Part shown: positions 1 to 26,900 of the stretch, in pieces | Layout of the letters: each line of letters begins with the position of its first letter | Position numbering within the stretch: the stretch's first letter is position 1 | DNA from: Flavisolibacter sp. | GTDB lineage: Bacteria > Bacteroidota > Bacteroidia > Chitinophagales > Chitinophagaceae | NCBI GenBank assembly: GCA_035714205.1 | Contig: DASTMJ010000205.1 | Coordinates: forward strand, 1 to 55,695 | DNA length: 55,695 nucleotides | Reading direction: 5' to 3' | The notes under the pieces: generated by a model | Databases searched by the model: none | What the model was told of the DNA's origin: nothing | What the model saw: only the letters and a program-made list of their open reading frames with translations | Program-made: the position numbers and the translations under genes

Positions 1-440
1 CAATAGGTGCCGTAGGTTTGAATGATGTGTATGTTGTGCCTCATGATAATGTTACGCCGTTTTATATTACCAGTGAAACGGAAGCGGTACGTACCCGCTT
101 AAGAGAAATGAAACGAAGATTTTTGGGAAACCGGGAACCAGAAGATTTGAGTGGTAAAACAGTTATTGTAATTGACGATGGAATTGCAACCGGAGCAACG
201 CTGCTGGCCACGCTGGCCATTTTAAAAAAAAGCCAACCCGCTAAAATTGTTGTGGCTACACCTGTTATCTCTTCCTCAGCAATGGAAAAATTATCGGCTG
301 AAGCAGACGAGGTAATCACACTTCATTTGCCTGAGACATTTTATGGTGTTGGGGCTTTTTATACAGATTTTAAGCAGGTAACAGATGAAGAAGTAATATT
401 TTACCTTGGCAAATTAAGAGAATTAAAAAAAGCGGGTTGA
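1..440 (+). CDS. Phosphoribosyltransferase family protein (5' partial)
   Basis: PRPP-binding motif VIVIDDGIATGAT; C-terminal FYGVGAFYTDFKQVTDEEV; frame is open back to the window edge (IGAVGLND), so the start lies upstream. Confidence 0.88.
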   Translation, partial: IGAVGLNDVYVVPHDNVTPFYITSETEAVRTRLREMKRRFLGNREPEDLSGKTVIVIDDGIATGATLLATLAILKKSQPAKIVVATPVISSSAMEKLSAEADEVITLHLPETFYGVGAFYTDFKQVTDEEVIFYLGKLRELKKAG

Positions 441-487
441 CAGCAATACCCGTTATTTAATTATTCTTGCTTCCTCCATAAAAAACC

Positions 488-907
488 TCAGGTATCACTG
501 TTTTTATTTTTCTCTTTTTGTTCCTGTAATGTTGATGCTAAAAATTCGTTGCAACTATATTTTGTATCCAGGAAAGTTTTTTCCAGGCTGTGCATATTTT
601 CACGTAAGGTTTTCTGCTGCTGGTGGATACCTGCGGATATCTGTTCGTTTTCGAGAGGCAGGTTCTTTAAGAGAAGTTGTTTTTTCAAAACCTCTATACC
701 GGATTGTTGCCTGAAAAAATCAAGTTTTGATACCTGTAACTGGTTGAGGTGATGTTCTACTTTAGCGGCCAGGTGAATTACAGTGTCATACCTTGTAATT
801 TCATTCAACCATTCTTCTGTTTCATCAATATATTCCAGGTAAAATTCAATGGAGTCTTTCCATTCTTCCTGTTCGTTGATATAAAATTCAGCAATTGAAT
901 AATTCAT
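488..907 (-). CDS. Hypothetical helical protein, 139 aa
   Basis: ATG-started ORF directly downstream of a tandem-box promoter (924-988); no recognised motif. Confidence 0.75.
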   Translation of the reverse strand: MNYSIAEFYINEQEEWKDSIEFYLEYIDETEEWLNEITRYDTVIHLAAKVEHHLNQLQVSKLDFFRQQSGIEVLKKQLLLKNLPLENEQISAGIHQQQKTLRENMHSLEKTFLDTKYSCNEFLASTLQEQKEKNKNSDT

Positions 908-923
908 GTCTGAAAGTTTTTCG

Positions 924-988
924 TAAAGCTATTAAGAGGATAGATGTGGATTCATGAGGACCGTCAGGATATTTCTTGATACCAATTA
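924..988 (-). promoter_or_regulatory. Tandem Crp/Fnr-like box promoter
   Basis: TGAGGACCGTCA (955-966) and TGATACCAATTA (977-988), 22 bp apart; minus-strand TAGCTTTA at 931-924. Confidence 0.75.
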
Positions 989-1025
989 CCGGATATGGTA
1001 AGACAGCGGTGTTTATCTGTGTGCA

Positions 1026-2921
1026 TCAGTTATTTGCAGGCAAGCCTATAATAACAGTAGTTCCTTTATCTAATTTGCTGATTATCCTGATTGTGCCGTT
1101 TAAAAGATTTACGTATTTCTTTACAATATGTAAGCCCAGGCCTGTTCCCTGGATATTCTGAGCATTTGTTGCCCTGTAAAAACTTTCGAATAAATGTTTT
1201 TGATCTATCCTGCTAATACCTATTCCCCTGTCCTTTATTTTTATCAGGACCTTTTTCTGTTCTACAAATGTTGTAATTGAGATCTTTTTGTTTTCCTGCG
1301 AAAATTTAATAGCATTAACAATTAAATTGAGAAGGATGGTTTTTAGTAATTTTTTATCCTGTTCTATTACTGTAAGACCCTCATGGACATACCGCAGTAT
1401 CTGACCTTTTTTTAAGAGGGGGTTTAGTTCTTCCGTTATGTTGGTTATCAAGTCTTTTATATTAAAGCGGGTACTATGAACAACTGCTTTGCCCTCTTCC
1501 AGTTTACCAAGTGAAAGGAAATCATCAAGCAATGTATTCATGTGGTAAACGGCTTCTTTGATCCTGCTCAGGTGGCGGTTTTTATGTGCATCAATTATGT
1601 CCGCCATATATTTTTCAAGTAAATAAAGGGAAGATAGAATAGTGCTGAGTGGTGTTCTGAACTCATGTGAAGCCATAGAAACAAACCGGCTCTTCATTTC
1701 GTTTAGCTGGTGTTCTTTTTCCAGGGATTTCTTTAAATGTTTTTCGGAAAGCTGTAGTTGCCTCAGGCTTTGCGTTAGTGATTGTTTTAACAAAGTTTCT
1801 TCCGTTATATCAATTGCCCATCCGCCAACATAAAATTTGCCTTCTGATAAAATGGGAAATTTTATAATCTGGTAACTATGCTCCTGCCCATCCGGGGTAA
1901 CTCCTTTTTCTATGGTACGCAAGATCTTGGTGCTGGCTCGCACCAACTTGTCGTGTTCAATATACGATTCAGCAAAATGTGATGGGAAAACGTCGGCAAG
2001 GTGTTTCCCAATATCTGTTTTTTTCAGCTTGAAGGTTTTTGCATACGAAGGGTTTATATAGTTCAATGTACCATCTTCACCGGTTATCCATGATAAAATA
2101 GGGCTGTTATCCATAAAGGTTTCAAAAAGCTTTTTGCTTCGGTAAAGAAGTTCATTTAGCTGCTCTATCGATTTTTGAGGTGTGATGTCCCTAACCAGGC
2201 AGCATGCATGCGTGATAAAGCCTTCCGAATTCTTTACTGGGAAATAGCTTGCCTGTATCCAGATATTTTTGTTTTTTACCTTAATCTCTAACTGATAAGT
2301 ACATTTTTGTCCGCTGAGTGCAGTTTGGAAACACTCCCTGATTTGCTCTTTTCGGTGTTGGGGTAATTTTGAGATCACATTATCGCCGGATTTATAAGTA
2401 AATCCATATGTTTCTTTGATTTTTTTATTTGCTTTTTCATCGATATGCACCAGTTGCAGATCTTTATTTATTACAAAAAATATGTCATCTACAGAGGAGA
2501 TGATCGATAAAAAGGTTGACAGCTCTGTTTTGGTCTCGTTTAATTCTGTAATATCCCGGTGTACTCCAACGTATCCAATTGTTTTTCCTTTTGGATTTTT
2601 GATAACAGTAACTGAAGCATCGATCAATAATAGTTTTCCTTCATTGGTCAGGAAATGAATATTGCCCTTCCAATATCCTTTTTCCAATAGGTCTGTTCTT
2701 GCTTTTTCTTCGGAGTGAGCAGGGTAAATAAATTTCAAAATGGTATATCCCCTTTTCCCAATAGCTTCTGCAGAGGTGTATCCAAAAATTTCTTCAGCTC
2801 TCCTGTTCCAATATTGTATAATAAAATTCTCATCTGTGGCAACAACTGATTCGTCGATGCTCCTTAACAGGGCGGTCAAATATTCCGAATGAAAAACCGG
2901 TGGATGGCTGGCAATCCTCAT
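1026..2921 (-). CDS. Cytoplasmic multi-PAS sensor histidine kinase
   Basis: Three PAS-like repeats (e.g. YWNRRAEEIFGYTSAEAIGK); H-box SHEFRTPL, N-box NAIKFS, G1 DRGIGI, G2 GTGLGL; no TM segment; ATG 2921 preferred to TTG 2936. Confidence 0.93.
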   Translation of the reverse strand: MRIASHPPVFHSEYLTALLRSIDESVVATDENFIIQYWNRRAEEIFGYTSAEAIGKRGYTILKFIYPAHSEEKARTDLLEKGYWKGNIHFLTNEGKLLLIDASVTVIKNPKGKTIGYVGVHRDITELNETKTELSTFLSIISSVDDIFFVINKDLQLVHIDEKANKKIKETYGFTYKSGDNVISKLPQHRKEQIRECFQTALSGQKCTYQLEIKVKNKNIWIQASYFPVKNSEGFITHACCLVRDITPQKSIEQLNELLYRSKKLFETFMDNSPILSWITGEDGTLNYINPSYAKTFKLKKTDIGKHLADVFPSHFAESYIEHDKLVRASTKILRTIEKGVTPDGQEHSYQIIKFPILSEGKFYVGGWAIDITEETLLKQSLTQSLRQLQLSEKHLKKSLEKEHQLNEMKSRFVSMASHEFRTPLSTILSSLYLLEKYMADIIDAHKNRHLSRIKEAVYHMNTLLDDFLSLGKLEEGKAVVHSTRFNIKDLITNITEELNPLLKKGQILRYVHEGLTVIEQDKKLLKTILLNLIVNAIKFSQENKKISITTFVEQKKVLIKIKDRGIGISRIDQKHLFESFYRATNAQNIQGTGLGLHIVKKYVNLLNGTIRIISKLDKGTTVIIGLPANN

Positions 2922-3056
2922 GGTATTGCAAAGCACACGATAAACATTGACTAAAAAAATGAGTTGAGTGGTTCCGGCATTTGATTCTGCTCAGATTTTC
3001 AAAGCCAGAACGTTCTTCCAATAAAAAATTTGAGACTGCTTCCTGTGACCGGATGA

Positions 3057-3121
3057 TGACGATTGTCAGTAGGGTTCATAAGTCTGCTCATTCATTACCT
3101 CCGGGAGTAACCTTAGTTTTA
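3057..3121 (+). promoter_or_regulatory. Tandem Crp/Fnr-like box promoter of the response regulator
   Basis: TGACGATTGTCA (3057-3068), TAAGTCTGCTCA (3079-3090), TAGTTTTA (3114-3121). Confidence 0.72.
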
Positions 3122-3171
3122 TTACAATATCCTTTAAAAACCAAAATATTTTTCATTACAAATGGTGAAGT

Positions 3172-4227
3172 ATGAAAACCATTCTATTGATTGAGGATAA
3201 CAGGCAAATACGGGATAATGTAACAGAAATTCTTGAACTTTCCCATTACAAAGTCTTTACTGCGGAAAACGGGAAAGAAGGTGTTACCCTGGCCATTTCC
3301 AACCAGCCCGACCTGATTCTTTGTGATATTATGATGCCGGAACTGGATGGTTATGGTGTACTTCATATGTTGCAAAAAAACCCCCAGTTACAGGATACAC
3401 CATTTATTTTTTTAACAGCGAAAACAGAGCAGGCCGATCTACGGAAAGGTATGTCTTTAGGTGCAGATGATTATATCACAAAACCCTTCAATCCCACCGA
3501 CCTGTTGAATGCGGTTGAAAACAGACTTGCGAAATCAGAGGGTTTGAAAAAAAGATTCAAACATAACATACCTGAAGTGACCGGGCCAGATATAAGGCAG
3601 GACGTTGATTCATTAGTTGAGGAGCTTATGAGTGGCCGGCATATCGATATCTATAAAAAAAAGCAGCGTATATACATTGAAGGAAATCATCCCCTGAGAC
3701 TTTATTACGTTAAAAAGGGGAAGGTGAAAATTTACAAAACCAATGAACGAGGTAAAGAATTAATATTAAAGATCATTAACGAAGGTGAGATCTTTGGATA
3801 TACAGCTTTACTTCTTAATTCGCTTTATTCCGATAATGCGGATGCGTTGGAAGATGCGGAAATAGCGACATTACCCAGCAGTGAGTTCCAGGAATTTGTA
3901 CGATCCAATCCCCGGGCTTGTGTAGGATTCACAAAACTTTTGGCAACTGAAATTATAACAAAGGACGAACAGATGATCGGCCTGGCTTTCAACTCGCTAC
4001 GTAAAAAGGTGGCCAACGCCCTGGTAAGTTTGCAAAGCAGGTATACTGACAAAGCACAGCCATTATCGATCAACTTAAGCCGGGAAAACCTGGCTGCTTT
4101 GGCTGGTGCGGCTACTGAATCATTAATAAGAACATTAACCGATTTCAAAGCTGAACACCTCATAGATATCAAAGGTGGAAATATCATAGTCAAAGATTTT
4201 GATAAGCTTGCCAAGATAGCTGATTAA
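3172..4227 (+). CDS. Hybrid response regulator: REC + cNMP-binding + Crp/Fnr HTH
   Basis: REC (LIEDN, DLILCDIMMPELDG, FLTAK, KPF); cNMP fold (LYYVKKGKVKIYK, GEIFG); HTH SRENLAALAGAATESLIRTL. Confidence 0.93.
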   Translation: MKTILLIEDNRQIRDNVTEILELSHYKVFTAENGKEGVTLAISNQPDLILCDIMMPELDGYGVLHMLQKNPQLQDTPFIFLTAKTEQADLRKGMSLGADDYITKPFNPTDLLNAVENRLAKSEGLKKRFKHNIPEVTGPDIRQDVDSLVEELMSGRHIDIYKKKQRIYIEGNHPLRLYYVKKGKVKIYKTNERGKELILKIINEGEIFGYTALLLNSLYSDNADALEDAEIATLPSSEFQEFVRSNPRACVGFTKLLATEIITKDEQMIGLAFNSLRKKVANALVSLQSRYTDKAQPLSINLSRENLAALAGAATESLIRTLTDFKAEHLIDIKGGNIIVKDFDKLAKIAD

Positions 4228-4316
4228 GAGCCATTATTCCGATTTGCGTACACAAGTTTATGACAGAGCTACATAAAATCATCAGTCTAAAATCAAACGA
4301 TTTACAGGCCGCTTAC

Positions 4317-4381
4317 TGACCACAATCATTTGGCTAACCCTTCTCAATCATTGGTTCTTCAGTTAAAGGAAATCAATTTTG
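4317..4381 (+). promoter_or_regulatory. Degenerate tandem-box promoter with no downstream CDS
   Basis: TGACCACAATCA (4317-4328), half box ..CAATCA ending 4350, CAATTTTG at 4374-4381 with the same 23-nt spacer. Confidence 0.55.
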
Positions 4382-4385
4382 GGTC

Positions 4386-4444
4386 TGGTTTTTCATAGGA
4401 TATTGGACTTGCAACGGGCTGGATTTCTATCCAGCCTTCTTTTT
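4386..4444 (+). ncRNA. Candidate ~58-nt sRNA (A)
   Basis: Between the promoter at 4317-4381 and hairpin GGCTGGAT-ttct-ATCCAGCC + TTCTTTTT; 5' seed TTTTTCATAG; 5' end inferred. Confidence 0.45.
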
Positions 4445-4690
4445 ACCCAGGATAGTCGGGAAAAAAAAATACGGTATTCAGGTGAACAAGCTTTTGCATA
4501 TTCAATAAGCTACTTCAAATCGCACCTGTTGATCCAATTCTATTTTATGCTTTTGATGTAGAATGACATGGGGATGTTGGTGTTGTAAAAGAACATCTTT
4601 AATACACTATCATAAGCCTGGGGGAACAATTAGAAAGCAAAAGAAAAATTATTTAAAGAGCCGGATCCTCTGCCTCATTACTGAAGGGTT

Positions 4691-5176
4691 TCATTTTTTA
4701 CGGCTATATATACCCGTAAGTGAGCCGAAGGCCATTATGTTATCGCTCATAGCTTTTTCCACGTCGTTCACGTTTGCCGTGTTTTCAATCTTAAGAATAT
4801 TGTTGAGTGCATATACTTTAAACTGATAACGGTGAGTACCGGTTGGAGGGCAGGGTCCGCCATAACCACGTTTTTTAAAATCATTGATACCCTGTATCCC
4901 GGATTTGTGGCCTTCCCTGATATGGTGGGTTATGGGAATATTCCAGTTCAGCCAATGCAACCAGGTACCACCGGGTGCATCAGGATCGTCAACAATAAGA
5001 ACAAGAGATGCTGCTGCTTCAGGAATATTAGCCAGGTCAAGCGGCGGATTATCATTTGATCCATCGCAGGTATACTTTGCTGGTATACTTTCATTTTCCT
5101 TGAAAGCCGGGCTTGTAACAATGATCATTTTAAAATCTTCCACTTTCGTGGCTTCAAACGATTTTGCAGGGTTCAT
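4691..5176 (-). CDS. YbhB/YbcL family (PEBP/Raf kinase inhibitor-like) protein
   Basis: DDPDAP, WLHW, GINDF, YGGPCPPTGTHRY motifs. Confidence 0.93.
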   Translation of the reverse strand: MNPAKSFEATKVEDFKMIIVTSPAFKENESIPAKYTCDGSNDNPPLDLANIPEAAASLVLIVDDPDAPGGTWLHWLNWNIPITHHIREGHKSGIQGINDFKKRGYGGPCPPTGTHRYQFKVYALNNILKIENTANVNDVEKAMSDNIMAFGSLTGIYSRKK

Positions 5177-5256
5177 AATGCATTAATTTATCGCCAGGCG
5201 TGAATCGCCTGATTTGCAGCTATCAAAGGGCATAAAACCGAACTTCATCTCATTTT

Positions 5257-5291
5257 AAATAAGGTAATGCCATAAAGACACTACCTTATTT
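5257..5291. terminator. Hairpin downstream of the BON gene
   Basis: AAATAAGGTA / TACCTTATTT inverted repeat. Confidence 0.5.
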
Positions 5292-5293
5292 AT

Positions 5294-5965
5294 TCAGAAA
5301 GCTAAAACTTCCTGGGGTTCAATTTTCAGGTTGTTCTCTACAATGGAAACGCCCGGTGCACACCATGCAGCGTGTACGGCATCTTCTCTTTCTGCATTGG
5401 ACCTTACCTTACCGTTTAGTATGATCATATTACCCCTGACCTCAATGCTGATCTTTTCAGAATCTATACCTGCACTTCTTTTAAAGGCTTCAGAGATCCT
5501 GGATTTAACATCAGCCGCTGTAACTTTTGGTTTGACGGTGATAAGATTCAATACATTGCGAACGCCAAGTAAATTGTTAACGGCTTTTTTTGCAGAGTTG
5601 CGCTGGTATTCCCATTCAACTTCGCCTTCAAGAGTTACAATACCGTCTTCTACCTTTACTTTTATTTTTTCAGACGGAACCATGCTATGCCACTTTATAG
5701 CGCTGATTACTGATTCTGCAATTTCTGCATCTGTTTTAAGATAAGAAGGTGAAACGCCTATTTGTATATCTTCCGCAATAGCCCTTACACCTGCGATCTT
5801 TTTAGTTGCTTTTTCTGCAGCCAGTTTTTGGGAGTAACTATCAACCTGGCCTGAAAGGGTAACAATACCGTTCTTAACAGCTACACCTATATCAGAAGCA
5901 GTAAGAAAAGGTTCCCATTTCAGCTGGCTTATAACATCCTGTTGAATTTCAAGATCATTTTTCAT
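5294..5965 (-). CDS. Triple BON-domain (OsmY-like) protein
   Basis: Three repeats of the type IGVAVKNGIVTLSGQV / IKVKVEDGIVTLEGEV / ISIEVRGNMIILNGKV; ends AWCAPGVSIVENNL. Confidence 0.92.
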   Translation of the reverse strand: MKNDLEIQQDVISQLKWEPFLTASDIGVAVKNGIVTLSGQVDSYSQKLAAEKATKKIAGVRAIAEDIQIGVSPSYLKTDAEIAESVISAIKWHSMVPSEKIKVKVEDGIVTLEGEVEWEYQRNSAKKAVNNLLGVRNVLNLITVKPKVTAADVKSRISEAFKRSAGIDSEKISIEVRGNMIILNGKVRSNAEREDAVHAAWCAPGVSIVENNLKIEPQEVLAF

Positions 5966-6030
5966 AATAAAGTTATTTTAACATTGATGAGTGAGAAAGT
6001 TGCAAATACAAGAAGTGTTTGCATACGCCG

Positions 6031-6096
6031 CAAAGCTTATATAGAATAATCCCCGTTAACAATGAGCACGGTCAAAGCTGTTGGTGACGCCTGTCA
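6031..6096 (-). promoter_or_regulatory. Tandem Crp/Fnr-like box promoter of the BON gene
   Basis: TGAGCACGGTCA (6063-6074), TGACGCCTGTCA (6085-6096); minus-strand TAAGCTTTG at 6039-6031. Confidence 0.78.
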
Positions 6097-6120
6097 GTGA
6101 TCCGGGGAAATGGTAAGTAA

Positions 6121-6699
6121 TTATATAACTTTCTTGTTTTTCAAAACCCAATACAATCCTTTTACATTGGCTCTCCATTCGGGGATAACAAAAACCAAGA
6201 TGATCTCTTCAATAAGATCTACTGCTGTGATTACGGCTGCCATGTAAAACAGCAGGTAAGGCATATCTGTGAGAAAAAATGCAAAGATCAAAAATAAGCC
6301 CTGGAACAGGGCTGCGGTTTTGGCGAAGTAGGTATGAAAACTACTGAACTTGCCATAGCGTAAAAAGGCTAATGATACTTGTAGAATGAACAATATAAGC
6401 AGGAAACAGATCAATAAAATTTCCTGCTGAATAAATGCTGGCTTCCATACAAATAAGCCGATGATGCCCATCAAAACCGTCATGTCATCGGCAATAGAAT
6501 CAATACGGGCACCCATCACACTCACCACATGATATTTGCGGGCAAGAAAACCATCAATTGAGTCAGTAAAAAAACTAATAGCAATCATCCATTTAAAAAT
6601 ATCCGGCCTATCCCTGTAAATAAGGTAGAGTAATAAAAAGGCAGAAAGCAACCTGTAAACAGTAATGGCATTTATGATATAATAGCTTTTTCTATGCAT
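6121..6699 (-). CDS. CDP-alcohol phosphatidyltransferase family protein
   Basis: Signature DSIDGFLAR..GARIDSIADD; multiple TM helices; ATG 6699 preferred to TTG 6723. Confidence 0.92.
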   Translation of the reverse strand: MHRKSYYIINAITVYRLLSAFLLLYLIYRDRPDIFKWMIAISFFTDSIDGFLARKYHVVSVMGARIDSIADDMTVLMGIIGLFVWKPAFIQQEILLICFLLILFILQVSLAFLRYGKFSSFHTYFAKTAALFQGLFLIFAFFLTDMPYLLFYMAAVITAVDLIEEIILVFVIPEWRANVKGLYWVLKNKKVI

Positions 6700-6741
6700 T
6701 GTAGGGGTAGCTAAAAAAATCAATTATAAATATAACCTTAC

Positions 6742-6805
6742 TGACAACAAATATTAAATGTGCTGACTGATGTCATTACTTAACAACATTTCAAACCTTA
6801 TTTTG
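6742..6805 (+). promoter_or_regulatory. Tandem Crp/Fnr-like box promoter
   Basis: TGACAACAAATA (6742-6753, imperfect), TGACTGATGTCA (6764-6775), TATTTTG at 6799-6805. Confidence 0.6.
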
Positions 6806-6857
6806 TGACTTATTTATGCCCTGTGGATGAGCGCTGGAATAGTATTAATTATTGATC

Positions 6858-6995
6858 ATGAAATCTACATCCCATAAACGGAGACCATTAAAATTTGGCA
6901 ACAGGGAAATAAAGCCGGTGGTTGTGTTGACATTCCTTTTTTTAATCCTGCTCTTTATTGCTTTTTATGTTGTGCTGAAAAATCCAGCCCGTTGA
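6858..6995 (+). CDS. Small single-pass membrane protein, 45 aa (not in ORF track)
   Basis: Manual translation MKSTSHKRRPLKFGNREIKPVVVLTFLFLILLFIAFYVVLKNPAR: basic N-terminus and 20-aa hydrophobic helix; follows a tandem-box promoter. Confidence 0.6.
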   Translation: MKSTSHKRRPLKFGNREIKPVVVLTFLFLILLFIAFYVVLKNPAR

Positions 6996-7054
6996 AAACA
7001 GGTTGCATATAACCTGTATAACATTTCATTATTTTATTCAGTAAACGAGAAGCT

Positions 7055-7447
7055 ATGAAACTTTTGCTTGCAACTAAGAAATGTATCAAAGACCTCAATA
7101 GAGAAATTGCAAAAAGATTCCCGAACCTGAAATTGCACTTTTACACCTCTGTAACAAAAGTTGGACCTTCTTTCCATTTTGGATCAAAGATCGCAGACAA
7201 CACTTTGCTTGATAAACTGGTTGAGAACTTTAAGCCTTTAGTTTTAGAAGTACATCCCTGGGATACAGTTGCTTACCTGCAACAGGTATTTGAAAACGAA
7301 TTGGGCTTGTTTGTACAGGTATTTAGAAGATCTGGTAATGACTGGCTGGAAACAAGAGGAACCGAGCACCTTACTCTTGAAACGCAAAATAACATGACCT
7401 ATGAGAATTGGAATTTCCATTTTAATATTAATACCCTCTATTTATAA
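7055..7447 (+). CDS. Hypothetical protein, paralog of 8854-9258
   Basis: Shared motif QVFRxxxxxWxxTxGTxxxTLExQN. Confidence 0.8.
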   Translation: MKLLLATKKCIKDLNREIAKRFPNLKLHFYTSVTKVGPSFHFGSKIADNTLLDKLVENFKPLVLEVHPWDTVAYLQQVFENELGLFVQVFRRSGNDWLETRGTEHLTLETQNNMTYENWNFHFNINTLYL

Positions 7448-7528
7448 TACGATCAGCGTGGCATTTTTTTTAGCCTGAAAAAAATGGGAATGTACTGTGC
7501 CGTTGTGCCTGTTCGTTACGACCTGTGC

Positions 7529-7593
7529 TGACAGCTTTCACGCATATAGCTGACCATCATCATTGAAATAGACTTAGCAGGTCTTTACTTTCA
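7529..7593 (+). promoter_or_regulatory. Tandem Crp/Fnr-like box promoter
   Basis: TGACAGCTTTCA (7529-7540), TGACCATCATCA (7551-7562), TACTTTCA (7586-7593). Confidence 0.78.
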
Positions 7594-7617
7594 GGATCTA
7601 TTGCTTAAATCAAAATC

Positions 7618-8802
7618 ATGAAACCAGTCATAACCATCCTGTTGTTATTATTTTCATCTCAACAGGCACAAGCTTATCGTATGTTATGGGGAAGAACAGT
7701 TAATCTTACCCAGCCGGTTTATGAAGACCTTTATATTGCCGGCGGAACCGTAACGCTGAGCGCACCTGTATATGGCGACCTGATAATAGCCGGTGGTACA
7801 GTGTATATTAATGACTCCGTAAAAAATGATCTTTTGGTTGCAGGTGGCAAGGTAACAATTAATGGATATGTTGCTGATGATATACGATGTGCCGGTGGTG
7901 AACTTTACATTAATAAAAATATTGGAGGCGATCTTGTCCTGACCGGCGGCAAGGTAGAAATAAAAAGACAAGTTGTAATAGCGGGCGGACTTGTTGCGAG
8001 TGGTGGTGAGATTATGATGGCAGGAACCGTTAGCGGTGATATACGCAGTACGGCAGGTAATTTTATTTTTAGTGGAACTGCACAAAAAAACTTTGATTAC
8101 AGGGGAAGGCAACTTGTTTTGAATGGAGACGTGTGGGGTAACGCCATTATAGCTGCCAATCAAATAACAATAGGAGAAAACGCAGCATTTAACAATGGAG
8201 TTCGTTACTGGAGTAAAAAAGGTGAATTGGATTTCAAGTCCTCCATAAAAAACGGAGCTGCAGTTTTTGATCCTGCACTTAAGTTAAAAACAGATAACTG
8301 GTATTTCCTTGGTCATTCAACGCTATTGGGATTAAGCTGGTATCTGATCACTGTTTTTTTATTCCTGTTGTTGATAGAGTTCCTGTTTGGTAAAACATTT
8401 AAAATTGCAGGTAACCAGTTGACAAAATCCGTTATAGCCTCACTAGGCTGGGGTTTATTATTTATTGTTGGTATTCCAGTATTGGTTGTACTTCTATTGT
8501 TAACCATTATTGGTATCCCGTTTGGATTGATACTGATGGCCTGCTATATAGGGTTCCTGGTATTGACAACCATAATTGTGTCCCTGGTATTAGCTAACTG
8601 GGTTAATTATCGTTTTCAGCATCAATGGAAATTCTGGAAATTGATTTTTGCAGCATTTGGCTTTTTTGTCTTATTAAAGATCATCACGTTTACACCTTTT
8701 TTTGGCTGGCTCATTATGTTTATAATAGCCTGTATTGCTATAGGTGCATTGCTGCGTAACATTCACTGGCATAGAAACCGGGAGATGGTCGGCGCAGGGT
8801 GA
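7618..8802 (+). CDS. Bactofilin-like beta-helix repeat membrane protein
   Basis: Signal peptide; ~17-aa repeats DLxxAGGxVxIxxxVxG; hydrophobic C-terminus with about 5 TM helices. Confidence 0.8.
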   Translation: MKPVITILLLLFSSQQAQAYRMLWGRTVNLTQPVYEDLYIAGGTVTLSAPVYGDLIIAGGTVYINDSVKNDLLVAGGKVTINGYVADDIRCAGGELYINKNIGGDLVLTGGKVEIKRQVVIAGGLVASGGEIMMAGTVSGDIRSTAGNFIFSGTAQKNFDYRGRQLVLNGDVWGNAIIAANQITIGENAAFNNGVRYWSKKGELDFKSSIKNGAAVFDPALKLKTDNWYFLGHSTLLGLSWYLITVFLFLLLIEFLFGKTFKIAGNQLTKSVIASLGWGLLFIVGIPVLVVLLLLTIIGIPFGLILMACYIGFLVLTTIIVSLVLANWVNYRFQHQWKFWKLIFAAFGFFVLLKIITFTPFFGWLIMFIIACIAIGALLRNIHWHRNREMVGAG

Positions 8803-8853
8803 TGTTCCTGTTGATGAATTGAAACCATTTGTATCACCATCAAAAAAAAGGAT

Positions 8854-9258
8854 ATGAAAATCCCGTTAGATCCTTCCACAACGTTAATGGATATTCAGAG
8901 GCAATTCCAGTTGATGTTCCCTTTACTTAGCATTAGATTTTCTGATAAAGAACACCAGTTTGGCGAAGCCATTCTTCATGGTCATTGGCATGATGAGTCA
9001 TTACCATTTCTTTCCATTACCAAAACCCGCTACCGGGACTATATTGAAATTGAAAAGTGGTATAAAACGGGGGATGTAGAACAATTGTTGCAAAAGTTCT
9101 TTGGAGTACATCCGCAGGTATTCAGGAAACAAAACGATTCATGGATTCAAACTGCAGGCACTGATGAATTTACCCTTGAAGAACAAAATGAAATAGCGCA
9201 AAAAAATATACAGGATGAAATGGGCAGCTTCTGGCCAAAAACCGATGCTTTATTGTAA
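8854..9258 (+). CDS. Hypothetical protein, paralog of 7055-7447
   Basis: QVFRKQNDSWIQTAGTDEFTLEEQN aligns with QVFRRSGNDWLETRGTEHLTLETQN. Confidence 0.8.
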   Translation: MKIPLDPSTTLMDIQRQFQLMFPLLSIRFSDKEHQFGEAILHGHWHDESLPFLSITKTRYRDYIEIEKWYKTGDVEQLLQKFFGVHPQVFRKQNDSWIQTAGTDEFTLEEQNEIAQKNIQDEMGSFWPKTDALL

Positions 9259-9462
9259 TCCAGTGTTGTACTAGTATTTCTATGGAATTCCTGCCCTTAG
9301 AAATTGTGGATAAGAACAAATTCCCGATGATGATGCCACTTATAATTACTACATCTGGGTTAGCCAGTAGAGGTTGGTATTTGTATTCTGATAGACGGAA
9401 AACCTTTTTTGCGAAAAAGCGGGGTTCTTGTAGACAGGAAGGTTCAATAATGTGACAGCCTC

Positions 9463-9527
9463 TGATTGCTGTCATTGAACGGAGTGATGGGCATCATTGC
9501 ATTAAGCTTAAACTTGGCTTAGCATTG
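9463..9527 (+). promoter_or_regulatory. Tandem Crp/Fnr-like box promoter
   Basis: TGATTGCTGTCA (9463-9474), TGATGGGCATCA (9485-9496), TAGCATTG (9520-9527). Confidence 0.78.
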
Positions 9528-9579
9528 CCATGTGATTTTTAGGAAGCATGAAGTAGGTAAAATTTAAAACTTATCAGGT

Positions 9580-10074
9580 ATGAAAAAAATAACAATAATA
9601 CAGCTGGCAGTCAGCCTGCTTTGTGCAGGGTATATTCAAACTGCCGTTGCCCAGGTGGATACGATGAAAACACTTGAGCCTGTTGTGATTTATGCAAAAT
9701 CAAATGTAAATAAAGCTGTTACTGATGCCTTTGATAAACATTTTAAGGATGCGATGGACCCACAGTGGTTCCGTATGAATAAAGACTTTCTTGTAACGTT
9801 TATTACAGGAGATATGAAGAATAATGCCTTATTCCGCAAGAATGGCAAAATGGTTTATCATGTTAGTTATGGCCAGGACCATAACCTTCCTGATGAATTA
9901 AAAACACAGGTGCAAAATGGATATCCCGACTATAATATTACCAGGGTGGTAAATGTAAAGATGGATAACAGGGATGTATGGGTTGTAAATTTAGAAGGTC
10001 TAAAAAAATGGATCATTGTACGAATGGAGGACGGTGAATTGGAAGAAGTAGAGAACTATGACAAGGCAAGCTAA
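9580..10074 (+). CDS. Exported PepSY-like/BLIP-like (DUF2874-type) protein
   Basis: Signal peptide (AVA-Q); two repeats VNKAVTDAFDKHFKDA..W and LPDELKTQVQNGYPDYNI. Confidence 0.65.
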   Translation: MKKITIIQLAVSLLCAGYIQTAVAQVDTMKTLEPVVIYAKSNVNKAVTDAFDKHFKDAMDPQWFRMNKDFLVTFITGDMKNNALFRKNGKMVYHVSYGQDHNLPDELKTQVQNGYPDYNITRVVNVKMDNRDVWVVNLEGLKKWIIVRMEDGELEEVENYDKAS

Positions 10075-10116
10075 AATTTATTGACCAGAATTTTTCGAAT
10101 CAGGTTCTCTGCCTGT

Positions 10117-10146
10117 AAAAAGAGTTGCATCCTGCAACTCTTTTTT
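10117..10146. terminator. Bidirectional intrinsic terminator
   Basis: AAAAAGAGTTGCA-tcc-TGCAACTCTTTTTT between convergent genes. Confidence 0.85.
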
Positions 10147-10179
10147 GTTGCCCGATTAAATTTATTTATGGTTAAAATA

Positions 10180-10551
10180 CTATTCTTCATAGATCCATTT
10201 TTTGAAATGAGGTGCCGTTTCCTGGCTTACTATTATTGAGTGGTTGTTGGAACGTAGTGTAAGATTTACTTCCAGTTTTACTTTTTCAAAAGACCTGAAA
10301 CCCTTGATGTAATGTATATTGATCAAATATTTTCGATTGGCCCTGAAAAACAGTGAGGGGTCCAGTTCTTCTTCCAATGCGGAAAGGTTTTTATCGCACA
10401 AGTATTTTTTCTCGTTTTTATCTACTGCAATAATCACAGTATGATCCCTGAATATAAAAGCAATGTCTTCTAGTTTTAATGCGATATTTTCATTGCCCTT
10501 TCTCACAATTAATCTTGTTTTCATTTTTTTCATAGTTTTCAGTCGTTCCAT
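10180..10551 (-). CDS. Stand-alone LytTR DNA-binding domain protein
   Basis: LSALEEELDPSLFFRANRKYLINI..IIVSQETAPHFKKW; in-frame stop just upstream, so no REC domain. Confidence 0.9.
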   Translation of the reverse strand: MERLKTMKKMKTRLIVRKGNENIALKLEDIAFIFRDHTVIIAVDKNEKKYLCDKNLSALEEELDPSLFFRANRKYLINIHYIKGFRSFEKVKLEVNLTLRSNNHSIIVSQETAPHFKKWIYEE

Positions 10552-10620
10552 CGTTCACGATTTCCTTCGTAAAATATTTACAAATGCCAGGAATTTCTTT
10601 GTCACAAGTTGCGCATATGA

Positions 10621-10770
10621 TGAACGGAAATTTAGATGTGTGAACGTTAGTAAATAATTGTGCATAGTTTTTTGATGGATTTCATCTGCGATTTTTCACG
10701 CTTCATTTATGGATGCAGAAAAATTTCAACCTTGTTATTTGTCATTTCAAGCACCTGTTTAGCTGTTTCA
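10621..10770. promoter_or_regulatory. Phased direct repeats, candidate LytTR sites
   Basis: TTCA cores at 10681, 10702, 10725, 10746, 10767 (21-23 bp period, plus strand); TGAACG at 10621 and 10641 facing lytTR. Confidence 0.55.
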
Positions 10771-11047
10771 GAATTATGAAGCAGGCCATCTATTCCCGGG
10801 GAAAATTTTCACTTGATTTGGCTCCTATTATTTACCTGGTTTTTCTTTTCACTGTAAAACCCCGGATTCAAACAGGCTAATTGCGGATTTATACCAGAGA
10901 TCTGCGCCTTCGCATTTATTCCTCTTTTTTTTATCCATATTTTTTCCTGTTTCATATGATCAATTTCATGGTTTACATATTGATTGATGTTTGTTTGAAT
11001 CAATTCTAATCAACTTGTGGTCTTTGATAACAAAACACTTCATGCTG

Positions 11048-14000
11048 ATGAGAAAAGATATTATGTTATGCTTCGGCTTTTTCCTGCTAAGTATGCAGGT
11101 GATGGCCCAAACCAGGATTGTTTCCGGAAAAATTTCGGATACACAAGGCAAGGCAATTCCCGGAGCTTCCATTGTAGTAAAGGGAACAACCAACGGTACT
11201 TTAAGTGCAAACGATGGTTCGTTTACATTGTCGGTGCCGGAAAATGCAACCTCGCTGCTGGTATCAAATATTGGAATGGGCGAAAAAGAGATTAGTCTTA
11301 CTGACGCCTCTTCTTATAATATTATATTAACTACGGTTACAAAAAACGACCTGCAGGAAGTAGTAGTGGTTGGTTATGGTACCCAAAGGCGGGCGAACGT
11401 TACTGCGTCTATCTCCACTGTGAAGGCTGCGGAAATTGAAAACAAGCCATTTACTTCTGTAGATCAAATGCTGCAGGGTAAAGTAGCAGGTTTACAGGCA
11501 CCACTTTCAACGGGTCAGCCAGGTGCAGCGCAACCCATTCGGATAAGAGGTATCGGTTCAGTTAGTGCAGGGGCTAGCCCCTTATATGTTGTGGATGGTA
11601 TTATTGTAAATTTTGGTGACCTTTCAAGACTTTCAACCACTTCAAATGCACTATCCGGACTTAATCAAAACGATATTGAATCGGTTAACGTTTTGAAAGA
11701 TGCACAGGCAACATCCATTTATGGTTCAAGAGGCTCGAATGGTGTAATTGTAATCACCACAAAAAAGGGACGTGCAGGAAAAACTAAGTACAGGGCCGAT
11801 GTGGAGATGGGGGTCAATTCTTTGGCGCCTTTACCGGATAATGCTCATTTTTTGAATGCAGAAGAGTACCTGATGCTGCAGGAAGAAGGTTTGATAAATC
11901 GTGGTGCGACCCAGGCGCAAATTGATGCAACACTAGCTGCGTTAGGAAAGGGAAGTGGTGTTGACACGGACTGGATGGATCTTGTTCAACGTAATGGAGT
12001 GCAGCAACAATACAATTTATCTGCCAGCGGGGGTGATGCCAAGAACCAGTTTTATGTTTCGGGAGGTTATTTTAAACAGCAGGCGGCTGTAATTCCAGCC
12101 GAATTCAAAAGATATTCGCTAAGAACGAATTACAAGCACATAAGCAGTGATAAATTGAATTTTAATATCATTCTCAATGCTTCTCACTCTTACCAGAATA
12201 CACCACTGAATGGTGGTTTATTTGCCAGCCCTATTTCAGCAGTTGCCTGGTTGCGTCCTACAATGAACCCTTATAATGCTGACGGAAGTTTAAATATCAG
12301 CACAACAGGTGGATCTAATTTTAATAATGGGGCGTATAACCCGCTTTATATTGCCAAATATGACAAGAACGATCTGAACAGAACCCTGTTGCAGGGAAAT
12401 ATCAGTGCGGAATATGCCATTCTCAAAGGGCTGAGGTTTACATCGCGGTACGGAGTGGATTATAATCAAATGGAAGAATACAATTATTATAACCAGTTTC
12501 ATGGCGATGGTCCATCTCAGGGTGGCATTGGCCTGGCCTACTATACAAGATATTTCAACTGGATCGCTACCAATCAATTGGATTATAATACGTCTTTTGG
12601 GAGCGATGGATTATTAAGGCTGGACGCAAAACTTGGATATGAAGCACAAAAATCCAAGAATTATAACATAAATGCCCGGGCAGATGGTTTTCCTCCAAAC
12701 AGTGATCTGTATCTTTCGGTAAATGCTGCCACACCTAAAGCCGGTGCTGCCTCAGCTTCCGATTATGATTTCGCCGGACTTTATTCTGCTATAACATTCA
12801 ATTTCGATGACAAATATATTCTTAGCGGAAGTTTTCGCAGGGATGGATCATCAAGATTTAGTGATAATACAAAATATGGTAATTTCTGGTCTGTAGGCGG
12901 TGCCTGGAACATCAATAAGGAGGATTTTTTTGCTGCCCTATCTTTTGTAAATTCTCTAAAACTCAGGGCATCGTATGGTAAAACGGGTAATGCAAGTCTT
13001 GGAGATTATGCATGGCGACAAACCTATGGTTTTGGTTTCAACTATAACGGCCAGCCTGGTGGCACCTTTAATGTGGTAGGAAATGAAAATCTTACCTGGG
13101 AAAGCACCAACCAGGCCGATATTGGTATGGATGCAAGCTTTTTAAATGACCGAATCAGTATTGTAGTTGATGTATACAGACGCGTTTCTGACCGGCTGTT
13201 GTTCTCGCAACCTCTTTCACGAACGACAGGATTTACCTCATTTACCAATAACATTGGGAAGTTGGAAAATAAAGGAATTGAATTCACATTAAATGCAACA
13301 CCATTACGAACGAAAGATTTTTCGTGGGATTTAAGTTTCAATATCACTCATAATAAGAATAAGGTTTTAAAGCTACCCGATGGAAAGGATATAGTAGACG
13401 GCGCTTTTATTTTGAGAGAAGGTTATGATTACCGAACTTTTTATGTAAGGGAATGGGCCGGTGTGGATCCTGCAAACGGCGACCCGTTATGGTACGTTGA
13501 TGGTTCGCATGAAGAGACAACGAATAATTATAATTCGGCACAACGTCAGCTGATTGGCAGTGCATCACCAAAATATTTTGGCGGGCTTACCAATTCCTTT
13601 TCGTTCAAAGGTTTTACGCTTGCAGCAGATCTTGTGTATAATTATGGAAACCGGGTAAGAGATGGCTGGATATTTTACCTGGCAGATGGCGCCTACCCTC
13701 CGTTCAATAAATACCGTATCAATTTACAAAGATGGCAAAAGCCGGGAGATGTTACCGACGTTCCCAAATATGTGTATGGATCAACTAATAGCTCAAGCAG
13801 TTTTTCTACACGTTTCTTAAATAAAGGCGATTTCATCAAGTTAAGAAATGTAACCATCAGTTATGACCTGAACAGTAGTTTAATTAGTCGTATTGGGCTG
13901 AACAGTGCACGGTTTTATGTAAGAGGCACCAATTTGTTGACAAAAACGTACGACAACAACTTAACCATAGATCCCGAGCAAGGCATAAACGGAGCTTCCA

Positions 14001-23915: not shown

Positions 23916-26900
23916 ATGATTATCTCACCAAAGCTTCTGATTCTGAGTGTATTGATCCTGTTTTGGTTAGGGGTGGCTGCCCAGCGAACGTATAAATCTT
24001 CCTCGGTACTTGCATCCGGAAACTGGTTTAAGATCAGTGTAAAAGAGACGGGAGTATATAAGATGGACGCAGCTTTCCTGGCTTCTTTGGGTGTACAGGG
24101 GGCAATACCTTCTGCACAAATCAGGATCTATGGAAATGGTGGTGGAATGCTGGCTGAAGCCAACAGCCAGCCACGGGCCGATGACCTTGAAGAAAATGCT
24201 ATTATGGTTGTAGACGGGGGTGATGGTGTTTTAAACGGTGCTGATTATGTTTTGTTTTTTGCCCAGGGCCCCGATACCTGGAAAAAAGATTCGGCAAACC
24301 GACGATTTATTCATCAAAAAAACCTTTATTCTGAGAAGGCTTTTTATTTTATTACCATTAACGGTAATGGCAAACGCATTCAAAACCAGGATGTACTACA
24401 ACCGGCACCGGTAACTGTCAATACCTATGATGAGAGATATTTTCACGAACTGGATTCTGTAAATTTTTTAGCAAGCGGTAAAGAATGGTTTGGTGAGGAA
24501 TTTTCATCCGCTCCGGGCAAAACACTAAACCGGAGTTTTTTTCTGCCTTTTTCATCGGGTTCGGCGGGAACACTTGTTACCAGTGTGGCTGCCAGATCCA
24601 TCAACCAGGTGAGTTCTTTTTCTGCAGTTCTTAATGGCCAGGTAATGCAGCAGGTTTCTGTAAATCCTGTTGGTGCAGGGGTGTACGATATGTTTGTGCA
24701 AACCGCTGAAGACGAGACCAGCTTTAGTGCCATAGACAACTCTATAACCTTTACCTATACTCCCGGTAGCTTTAACAGCCAGGGCTGGCTTAATTGGTTC
24801 AGGGTCTTTTGCCGGCAACCTTTACGATTTTCTTCGAAACAGCTTTTATTCAGGGATTGGCTAAGTGTAAACAATGCTGCCGCAAACTTTTCTATTGAAA
24901 CCACCGATGTTAATGCACAGGTTTGGGAAGTGACCAATCCATTGGCTCCGGTCAGGATGAATACATCGCTTACAGCCCCGGGCATTTTTTTCACAAACGA
25001 TGCCCTGCAATTGCGGGAGTATGTTTGTTTTTCCCACGATCTTTTAATTCCCCAGGCTGAAGGAAGAATTGCCGTGCAAAACCTGCACGCTGCAACTGAA
25101 ACCGATTTTATCATTATTACACATCCAGAATTGATCCAGCAGGCACAGCGCCTTGCTCAATTTCACCGGCAACAAAATAACCTACGCACGGTTGTTGTTA
25201 CCACGGAACAGGTGTTCAATGAATTTGCCAGTGGAATTCCAGATCCCATTGCCATGCGTGATTTTGTAAAAATGTATTACGACAGGTACAGGGCTAACTG
25301 GCCTGCTTCAGGCAAATACCTGTTGTTGTTTGGAAAAGCTTCTTTTGATTATAAGAACAGGATCGCCAATAACACCAACCTGGTACCTGCCTACCAGAGT
25401 GCTAATTCCATTGACCCATTATCAACGTATACGTCCGATGATTTTTTTGGTTTCCTTGATGATGATGAGGATATAAATTCGGGGGTTATAACGAATCAAC
25501 TGGATATCGGTATTGGCCGTATACCGGCTAAAACTGTTGAGGAAGCTAAAAACTTTGTTGACAAGGTGCTGGATTATCATTCACCCCAATCATTGGGGCC
25601 GTGGCGGACCAACCTTAATTTTATAGCTGATGACGAAGACCAGAATTTACACCTGGAAGATGCAGAAACTGTAACGGCAACCGTTTCTAATACGGCTCCT
25701 TTGTACAACCAGCAAAAGATCTACCTCGATGCCTTTCAACAGGAAGGTGCGGCTGCCGGTGGCCGCTATCCCGCCGCCAACACAGTCATCAACAATAATA
25801 TATATAATGGAACCCTTATCTGGAATTATAATGGACATGGTGGTGCTCAACGGCTGGCAGAAGAAGTAATTTTGGATCAATCCATTGTTGATAACTGGAA
25901 TAATCAATACCGTCTCCCTTTATTTATTACAGCTACCTGTGATTTTGCCCCATACGATCATCCTTTTTTAAATTCATTAGGAGAAAATTTATTGGTGCGG
26001 CCAAAAACCGGTGCTATTGCTTTAATGACGACCACACGTGTTGTTTTTGCTTTCAGCAACCGGATATTAAACAACAACTATTTAAAATTTGCCCTTGAAA
26101 CTACAAGTAATGGCCGCTATCGTTCTTTAGGCGAAGCTGTAATGGCTGCCAAAAATTACACCTATCAAACAAGTGGGGATGTTGTAAACAACCGCAAATT
26201 CACCCTACTTGGCGATCCGGCAATGACCCTTGGATTTGCCGGTCTGGAGGTTCAGGTAACCAAGGTAAATGGGGTGGATATTACATCTGCTGCTGACACA
26301 TTAAGCGCTACCGAGACCGTAAAAATGGAAGGTGTGATAACTGATAGGAGTGGCGTTTTACAACAGAATTTTTCAGGCACGGTAAGCCTTTCATTATTTG
26401 ATAAACCCAGAACGATAACCACGTTAGCGAATGATCCCGGCAGCATAGCGGTGGGCTTCCAGGATCAAAGCAGTGTATTATTTAAAGGAAAGGCATCGGC
26501 GGAAGCAGGAAAATTTACTATACAATTCAGGTTGCCCAAAGACATCAACTATCAGTATGGCAAAGGAAAGATCAGTTTGTATGCACAGGGTGGAACCAGC
26601 AGTGCCAGCGGCTTTTCTACCAATGTTGTCATTGGAAGTATTGGCGCCGGCGGAATCTCTGATACTGAAGGTCCGGTGATAAAGGCCTATCTGAACGATG
26701 AAAAATTTGTGACTGGTGGTATCACGAACAGTAATCCAGTTTTGCTCCTAAAGCTTTTTGATTCATCTGGCATCAACACCGTTAGTTCGGGCATTGGCCA
26801 TGATATTGTTGCCACCCTTGACAACAACAACAATATTTATTATGTGCTGAATAATTTTTATGAATCTGACCTGGATGACTACCAGAGAGGCACGGTCAGG

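Follow-up and report, generated by a model that had tools for sequence, protein, structure and literature searches.

Paired TGA-N6-TCA boxes at a fixed distance from the -7 element mark a probable low-oxygen regulon of receiver-Crp/Fnr proteins in a Flavisolibacter genome

The window analyzed here is a stretch of 55,695 nucleotides of Flavisolibacter sp., a soil bacterium (Bacteroidota), contig C205 (DASTMJ010000205.1) of a 4.02-Mb, 410-contig genome (GCA_035714205.1, labelled G000). It carries promoters in which two TGA-N6-TCA boxes start 22 bp apart and a -7 element resembling TAnnTTTG begins 23 nt after the proximal box. This geometry is real, genome-wide and widespread in the phylum. The promoters, some 47 in number, probably form a low-oxygen regulon run by phosphorylated dimers of receiver-Crp/Fnr proteins at -41.5 and -63.5, for which we infer binding, oxygen sensing and cooperativity.

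The seven box pairs of the original prediction (955/977, 3057/3079, 4317/4339, 6063/6085, 6742/6764, 7529/7551 and 9463/9485) were all recovered, each with its 22-bp offset, and 10 of the 14 boxes are perfect, as claimed. The imperfect boxes start at 977 and 3079 (one mismatch each), 6742 (two) and 4339 (three), the last being a half-site in which the TCA half alone is present. The -7 element had been placed exactly 23 nt away in every promoter. Broadly this stands, but it is slightly idealized: at 23 nt the octamers carry one mismatch to TAnnTTTG at 931 (minus strand), 3114, 4374 and 9520 (plus strand), and two at 6039 (minus), 6799 and 7586 (plus), and in promoters 4 and 5 better octamers lie one base off (AAGCTTTG at 24 nt and TTATTTTG at 22 nt, respectively). 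An eighth promoter, at 2993 on the minus strand upstream of a PAS kinase gene, had been overlooked. Promoter 5 is the weakest of the eight (20.6 bits), and its -7 element agrees with the TAnnTTGY variant of PMC9723704. A motif scan gave 13 matches with up to three mismatches in the window and 1.02 ± 1.07 in 100 shuffles of it; the 13 represent six pairs counted on both strands and one coding match, with 4317 absent among them.

Genome-wide, pairs (up to two mismatches) with a -7 element (up to one mismatch) were counted over a grid of 26 spacings by 30 gaps. The cell for spacing 22 and gap 23 stood out, with 29 sites in all, 28 of them outside long open reading frames (ORFs); the other 779 cells averaged 1.02 (standard deviation 1.12, maximum 7). 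The long-ORF mask leaves 16.5% of the genome, yet 28 of the 29 sites fall there. Perfect pairs were found nine times at spacing 22 and zero to three times at each other spacing from 12 to 45, while single perfect boxes peaked at gaps of 23 (34) and 45 (27), with 1–13 at other gaps. A matrix search returned 49 sites of at least 20 bits and one in the reversed genome, a comparison that is partly circular, the matrix having been trained on sites of the same genome. From this set, C339:4293 was dropped as lying inside an ORF, as was a site in the window (25559-25623, 26.3 bits) inside an ORF of 1144 aa, which reflects chance or an internal promoter. The final set comprises 47 promoters on 28 contigs, eight in the window and six on contig C233. 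The regulon can thus not be called local, as had been proposed, since the window holds 8 of the 47 sites and the layout is phylum-wide.

The box consensus is TGAY-N4-RTCA, usually followed by T, and the spacer sequences differ among sites. Perfect boxes occur at 28 distal and 24 proximal positions. The -7 elements are weak, since only 8 of the 47 match TAnnTTTG perfectly (23 have one mismatch, 14 two and 2 three). As regards the outer bases of the proximal box, an A follows it in none of the 47 sites and a T precedes it in nine. TTG after the proximal box was seen in 14 of the 47 matrix-chosen sites and 9 of the 29 seed sites of this genome; a conserved -33 element was rejected as a general feature, the triplet being present at 8 of 131 sites in other genomes.

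The proposal of a Crp/Fnr-type regulon with a receiver-Crp binder is supported. The genome encodes three full-length receiver-Crp proteins, on C205 (the window), C64 and C157, the latter two being 60% and 51% identical to the window regulator, respectively. In all three, D9, D52 and K104 are invariant, residue 82 is T or S and the recognition helix reads TESLIRTL. All three genes lie behind double-box promoters; in the window, promoter 2 precedes the regulator gene at 3172..4227, in agreement with the suggested autoregulation. Since the other two paralogues share the TESLIR helix, the protein adjoining the window promoters is one of three candidate binders.

Matches to PF00027 and PF13545 above cut-off, together with best solved relatives that are Crp/Fnr proteins, place the window regulator in that superfamily, and its complete PF00072 receiver pocket marks it as a response regulator with predicted phosphorylation. 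In CRP, a Glu and an Arg bind cyclic AMP (cAMP) and an Arg reads TGTGA; Tyr, Tyr and Thr align where these would be expected, and the CRP model PRK11753 scores 81.7 (cut-off 266). The N-terminal cysteine cluster of FNR is likewise missing, the only cysteines being Cys51 and Cys250, and a single-query search of this genome gave no other candidate for a cysteine-rich FNR. In a tree of 48 Crp domains, the 35 receiver-fused rows formed one clade (100/99), and the window and C64 copies grouped with a copy from a second genome, G062 (100/98), apart from the C157 orthologues.

The C157 regulator follows a kinase gene truncated by the start of its contig, and the end of contig C314 encodes a matching N-terminal half, with a perfect double box followed by Rrf2 and RIC upstream of it. 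A single intact kinase of G062, where the order box-(Rrf2)-RIC-like-kinase-regulator is kept, aligns with the two halves at 57% and 72% identity. The PAS domain of the C314 half best matches FixL (1d06, E 7.6e-11) and aligns the histidine that serves as haem ligand, as expected of a FixL-type PAS; the residue is kept in all eight aligned domains. The C157 regulator and a FixL-like haem-PAS kinase probably share a transcript. The PAS domains of the window kinase best match non-FixL PAS domains, with a weak match to DosP (E 1.7e-5) that aligns a histidine. The cores of the window and C157 kinases are 55% identical, which favors cross-talk.

These comparisons bear on whether the window regulator and the three-PAS kinase run the island of promoters here while the C157 system separately runs respiration genes. 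Such a division is suggested by the clustering of 8 of the 47 sites in the window and six more on the probably adjacent C233, by the divergent kinase-regulator pair kept in G062 and by the separate clade of the window and C64 copies. It has a small chance of being correct, given that the recognition helix is identical in the three paralogues, that a single matrix gives similar scores to sites inside and outside the island and that the kinase cores are so similar. The island itself probably continues onto C233, because the N-terminal half of a phosphoribosyltransferase (PF00156 profile 14-62) ends that contig and the C-terminal half opens the window, the two contigs being without sequence overlap. 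A double-box promoter (C233:25467+) sits two genes upstream of the N-terminal half.

The register of the promoters is provided by published start sites of Flavobacterium psychrophilum, in which the -7 element spans -12 to -5 (PMC9723704); the box centres therefore lie at -41.5 and -63.5, as predicted. For the individual F. psychrophilum starts, the register was fixed on two divergent start rows that share one box, the rows reaching 50 nt upstream. In that study, cluster C52 is up under oxygen limitation in 22 of 26 supplement rows, hemN and cytochrome genes being induced. Nine C52 genes or segments could head transcription units, and six have a start row. A perfect box at -38.5 to -41.5 was found in five of these six hypoxia-cluster promoters, so that the mapped starts of this other species support the position of the proximal box. 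It lies 23 nt before the -7 element at ccoI and cytochrome c551 (both -41.5), ccoS (-40.5) and THC0290_1451 (-38.5). Anaerobic log2 changes are 4.94 for ccoI and 4.76 for ccoS, and stationary-phase values are -0.86 for ccoI, -1.24 for ccoS and -1.98 for ccoNO (PMC9723704). The divergent Crp/Fnr gene shares a box that is 10 nt before its own -7 element, a repressing position, and reads 9.6/10.5 against a control of 11.0/11.8. The distal position of ccoI, read from the other strand, has three mismatches. The available main text of PMC9723704 mentions Crp or Fnr 0 times.

Under the preferred reading, low oxygen would switch on the haem-PAS kinase encoded across C314 and C157, which would phosphorylate its operon partner and probably both paralogues, with the three-PAS kinase of the window as a second input. 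Dimers at -41.5 and -63.5 would then activate the housekeeping sigma factor at the weak -7 elements. The -41.5 dimer would touch RNA polymerase as in class II CRP/FNR promoters, and the abutting -63.5 dimer would bind cooperatively, such that one degenerate box is tolerated and the response is sharpened. Promoters before both kinases and all three regulators would create positive feedback, and a small RNA, described below, would be one output.

The idea that two activator dimers replace the -33 element needs qualifying: two dimers are not required for this, because a Flavobacterium-like genus (g27) uses a single box. An alternative is that the -41.5 box alone activates, while the -63.5 box dampens or, since a pair is its own reverse complement, serves a divergent promoter. 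The sufficiency of one box in g27 argues for it, as does C233:25467-25500 (L003:11468-11501), where one pair forms two divergent promoters of 40.6 and 37.6 bits, facing a dienelactone hydrolase-like and an S30AE-like gene; two-way pairs are also present in G138, G142, G182 and G326. We consider this alternative unlikely: the distal box is conserved no less well than the proximal one (28 versus 24 perfect of 47) and is the sole full box at promoter 3. Two-way use was rejected as the explanation of the second box at most sites, the C233 pair being the only one of the 47 that is strong in both directions.

The Pfam scan of targets covered 75 proteins (70 of 96 candidate downstream ORFs and five neighbors), many of which have no Pfam family. 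Among the targets are an operon for cytochrome c, NosZ, fasciclin and NosL (the nosZ gene being of clade II), pyruvate:ferredoxin oxidoreductase, a ferredoxin with a 2-oxoacid oxidoreductase and nuoAB, hemerythrin, Rrf2-RIC, Hsp20 and five Usp proteins (one at a laxer threshold only). The set further includes a PEP synthase-type enzyme, glycogen phosphorylase, a Zn-alcohol dehydrogenase, malic enzyme, acetyl-CoA hydrolase and BON, DUF892 and S30AE-like proteins. NCBIfam cut-offs were passed by the Sec-dependent NosZ (956 versus 625), HemN (457 versus 325) and Rrf2, while RIC is the best NCBIfam match of its protein, yet below threshold (179 versus 205). The contig of the nosZ operon (C194:559-9413) also encodes a homologue (61% identity) of the 459-aa membrane protein whose gene neighbors that of the G138 regulator.

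Among 401 genomes of the phylum, 68 have a relative at E≤1e-30 and 115 contain at least one pair pattern (up to one mismatch), with up to 30 per genome and at most two in the reversed control; two large families show mostly single, chance-level matches (11/86 and 12/61). An exact scan of all prokaryote genomes found at least 125 stretches; among the 80 listed, 75 carry Bacteroidota names, and the remainder are two Ignavibacteria, one Calditrichaceae, one Legionella and one unnamed. In other genomes the layout recurred across 20 regulator loci, several of them drawn from genomes already known to be pair-rich, where the 22/23 cell held 48 sites over a background of 0.66; a further 11 loci gave 18 over 0.39.

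The distribution of one and two boxes was tallied in 80 hand-picked genomes, in which kin are not independent and the counts are descriptive. Outside one family (f5), at least three pairs were found in 30 of 39 genomes with a fused regulator, in 8 of 11 whose best match is unfused and in 3 of 10 with no match. In f5, 2 of 20 genomes have at least three pairs, although single boxes abound at gap 23 (medians 12-19). In g27, Flavobacterium-like by gene layout, the loci carry single boxes, the distal box being present in 1 of 30, and at seven of the 30 the encoded regulator is cysteine-rich and its helix reads GTA-ES-IR. A pair specific to receiver-Crp fusions was rejected, as pairs also flank cysteine-rich FNR-like regulators and unfused genomes carry pairs. 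Unfused Crp/Fnr proteins with an N-terminal Cys-x2-Cys were noted at L163-L168, L182, L191, L199, L201, L207, L209 and L210; they are likely the iron-sulphur (Fe-S) FNR of Bacteroidota, and the one that was tested falls below the NCBIfam FNR cut-offs. At the f5 loci L212, L213 and L216, a separate receiver-Crp clade lies behind kinases of 673-1105 aa without a FixL-type motif; the boxes around it are single ones, and many of them have the perfectly palindromic sequence TGACCTAGGTCA.

The three of ten non-f5 genomes with at least three pairs and no Crp-family match at E≤1e-30 could indicate that some unrelated factor recognizes the boxes, or that the pattern is due to chance or repeats. Either is extremely improbable: the enrichment is far over shuffles and neighboring spacings, the spacers differ in sequence, in many families the sites are concentrated around Crp/Fnr genes, and the threshold misses divergent members such as the FNR-like proteins of g27.

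Several observations weigh against a low-oxygen regulon of paired receiver-Crp dimers. The C314 and C157 kinase halves show no sequence overlap, their join being deduced; no cbb3 oxidase subunit I (ccoN) was detected in this assembly by tblastn; and many targets are general stress genes or genes of no known function. The pair and the fusion are not strictly linked, because f5 genomes with receiver-Crp mostly lack pairs (at least three in 1 of 8) and 8 of the 11 genomes whose best match lacks a receiver carry them. In F. psychrophilum, three candidate heads of C52 units have no start row, THC0290_0456 combines a perfect box at -39.5 with a poor -7 element and weak induction, and the Rfp4 start lacks a fitting box (PMC9723704). 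The promoters of that species adjoin a Crp/Fnr gene, which in the similar genus g27 is cysteine-rich, with the distal box absent; the F. psychrophilum data therefore test the proximal box only. Finally, CRP/FNR homologues of Flavobacteriales, Saprospiraceae and Ignavibacteria have been assigned to carbon sensing (PMC8510549); these may or may not be the same proteins as those described here.

Some of the same facts would suit a general dormancy regulon, in which the same regulators and boxes respond to nitric oxide, redox poise or stationary-phase entry. Haem-PAS domains bind nitric oxide and carbon monoxide too, the window kinase is not clearly of the haem type, ccoN was not found in the assembly, and Rrf2-RIC, Usp, Hsp20, BON, DUF892 and S30AE-like proteins are among the targets. 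Such a signal is nevertheless improbable, since hemN, pyruvate:ferredoxin oxidoreductase and nosZ are classic low-oxygen targets and the box-bearing promoters of F. psychrophilum are up when oxygen is limited, whereas ccoI, ccoS and ccoNO are down in stationary phase (PMC9723704).

Behind promoter 3 there is no convincing ORF. The promoter precedes a 21-nt segment and then a terminator, the latter taken from a sigma-70 promoter scan whose promoter part, unsuited to this phylum, was left unused. The predicted product is an RNA of 60 nt, apparently from a multicopy family without earlier description. Five clear siblings and one shorter one occur in the same genome (C62, C200, C216, C221, C279 and C369), and the 21-nt segment is present in 24 of 24 genomes of the genus, 55 of 80 of the family and none of 16 from other families. 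The terminator stem covaries at four of nine pairs (18 related sequences), and Rfam gave no matches at E≤1 for window positions 1-12000. Among 30 fetched copies (L231-L260), 27 have a -7-like octamer at one fixed upstream distance and none has the double box; by a strict pattern, a double-box copy was found in 1 of 40 other genomes of the genus, near a receiver-Crp gene. In L237, L240, L244, L247 and L249, a distinct motif (TGTGG-N5-TAC, then ATAGGA-like) lies ~25-50 nt upstream of the -7 element, a hint that the siblings may each answer to a regulator of their own. The 5' part of the RNA shows complementarity to AUG-AAA-AA; a target search by complementarity to start regions, made without a control, gave no standout, the best runs being 13-16 nt with G-U pairs. 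Two further strong double-box promoters, at C31:8819 and C18:28758, are followed by a hairpin and lack a clear ORF; they may drive additional small RNAs or short peptides.

Features of the window around the eight double-box promoters. Start, small-RNA and target assignments are predictions.
Feature	Position	Strand	Details
Phosphoribosyltransferase, C-terminal half	3..440	+	Pfam PF00156 profile 79-151
Protein of 139 aa	488..907	-	No Pfam family; promoter 1 target
Promoter 1	924..988	-	Distal 988-977, proximal 966-955, -7 931-924; start predicted ~919; 32.5 bits
Histidine kinase, three PAS	1026..2936	-	Pfam PAS/HisKA/HATPase
Promoter 8	2929..2993	-	Distal 2993-2982, proximal 2971-2960, -7 2936-2929; 25.6 bits
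Promoter 2	3057..3121	+	Boxes 3057-3068, 3079-3090; -7 3114-3121; 30.8 bits
Receiver-cNMP-HTH_Crp hybrid regulator, 351 aa	3172..4227	+	Pfam
Promoter 3	4317..4381	+	Perfect distal 4317-4328, half-site proximal 4339-4350, -7 4374-4381; 31.9 bits
Predicted small RNA, ~60 nt	4387..4447	+	Invariant 5' part and intrinsic terminator, stem 4416-4437
PEBP/YbhB-family protein	4691..5176	-	Pfam PF01161
Triple-BON (OsmY-like) protein	5294..5965	-	Pfam PF04972; promoter 4 target
Promoter 4	6032..6096	-	Perfect boxes 6096-6085, 6074-6063; -7 6039-6032 (better octamer one base later); 28.4 bits
CDP-alcohol phosphatidyltransferase	6121..6723	-	
Promoter 5	6742..6806	+	Distal 6742-6753 (2 mismatches), perfect proximal 6764-6775, -7 6799-6806; 20.6 bits
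Hydrophobic 45-aa ORF	6858-6995	+	Promoter 5 target
Protein of 130 aa	7055-7447	+	No Pfam family; promoter 5 target
Promoter 6	7529..7593	+	Perfect boxes 7529-7540, 7551-7562; -7 7586-7593; 33.3 bits
Bactofilin-like membrane protein	7618-8802	+	PF04519 below cut-off
Protein of 134 aa	8854-9258	+	Resembles 7055 protein (by eye)
Promoter 7	9463..9527	+	Perfect boxes 9463-9474, 9485-9496; -7 9520-9527; 34.9 bits
Protein of 164 aa	9580..10074	+	Signal-peptide-like start, no family above cut-off; promoter 7 target

The true start of the three-PAS kinase is likely the ATG at 2921, because the listed GTG start falls within the -7 element of promoter 8. The PEBP gene likely shares a transcript with the BON gene ahead of it, and the fifth box pair, in a weak minus-strand reading (16.7 bits), possibly serves the CDP-alcohol phosphatidyltransferase gene. 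Small proteins that match no Pfam family turn up repeatedly within or close to the regulon and form two groups by eye, with members at 488-907, 7055-7447 and 8854-9258 in the window and at L001:6650-7069, L009:999-1427 and L022:929-1315. Directly past the island, a stand-alone LytTR-domain protein is encoded at 10180-10551 on the minus strand, with no double box found upstream. Two soil metatranscriptome runs (from one study) and one DNA run, compared with positions 1-11000, were available as assembled contigs only; these cover, among others, the BON gene and the 9580 gene, with strand, starts and level unreadable.

A fixed geometry that is readable from sequence can name a regulator, its sensor and its targets together, and low-oxygen regulons thereby become readable from uncultured genomes. 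The system offers a defined example in which transcription by the unusual Bacteroidota sigma factor depends on an activator, and the one-box and two-box lineages provide a natural comparison. A broader picture is tentative and on balance doubtful: a Bacteroidota-wide low-oxygen box at -41.5, with a pair obligate outside one family and Fe-S FNR-like and receiver-Crp proteins interchangeable, acting as a DosR-like self-amplifying switch that would govern clade II nitrous oxide (N2O) respiration and dormancy and, by way of the small RNA, reach translation.

In Escherichia coli, FNR and CRP at class II promoters bind a site centred at -41.5, and an E-x-x-x-R helix reads the TGA core. Unlike them, the regulators described here are without Fe-S cysteines or a cAMP pocket, and an abutting dimer at -63.5 is proposed to be the rule. 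The kinds of target are similar to those of DosR (Usp, small heat-shock protein, phosphoribosyltransferase). DevR/DosR of Mycobacterium tuberculosis likewise has boxes arranged in tandem and in phase, a hallmark found at all of its promoters, tolerates a weak second site and permits two-way use, and its sites at tgs1 lie at -42.5 and -63.5, compared with -41.5 and -63.5, 22 bp apart, here (PMC3177182). DevR, however, is a NarL-type protein that recognizes an 18-bp box, and its promoters have two to four of these, spaced 21 bp apart at tgs1 (PMC3177182), whereas the present system has a Crp/Fnr fold, a TGA-N6-TCA box and a near-invariant 22 bp; the likeness is one of convergent design, not homology. 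Cluster C52 of F. psychrophilum has the same box at mapped starts, again 23 nt ahead of the -7 element, but differs in its apparently single boxes and unfused Crp/Fnr gene (PMC9723704). The CRP-like motif of Chlorobaculum is different and spacer-less (10.1101/172254), and the available part of PMC3590769 holds nothing on receiver fusions or tandem sites. The literature covered, which includes few of the subscription journals, yielded no account of the layout, of the small RNA or of the regulon under the fused regulator. The FixL-FixJ-FixK2 cascade of Bradyrhizobium shares a haem-PAS kinase on top, a Crp/Fnr-type output, a TGA-N6-TCA core near -40.5 and an N2O reductase operon as target (PMC5582078). 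By contrast, the receiver here is fused to the Crp module and the operon partner of the kinase is not of the FixJ type; the box is doubled and without the outer bases (T and A) of TTGA-N6-TCAA, the sigma factor is of the -7/-33 kind, and nosZ belongs to clade II. Only the core of the FNR/FixK box is thus retained, the FixK model scores 67.8 (cut-off 300) for the C64 copy, and, in place of separate FixJ and FixK proteins, the kinase partner is a fusion in the operons seen, a genome-wide search for FixJ not having been made. By analogy, the regulator is best read as combining the functions of FixJ and FixK in one protein, acting from a class II position on boxes arranged in tandem as in the DosR regulon.

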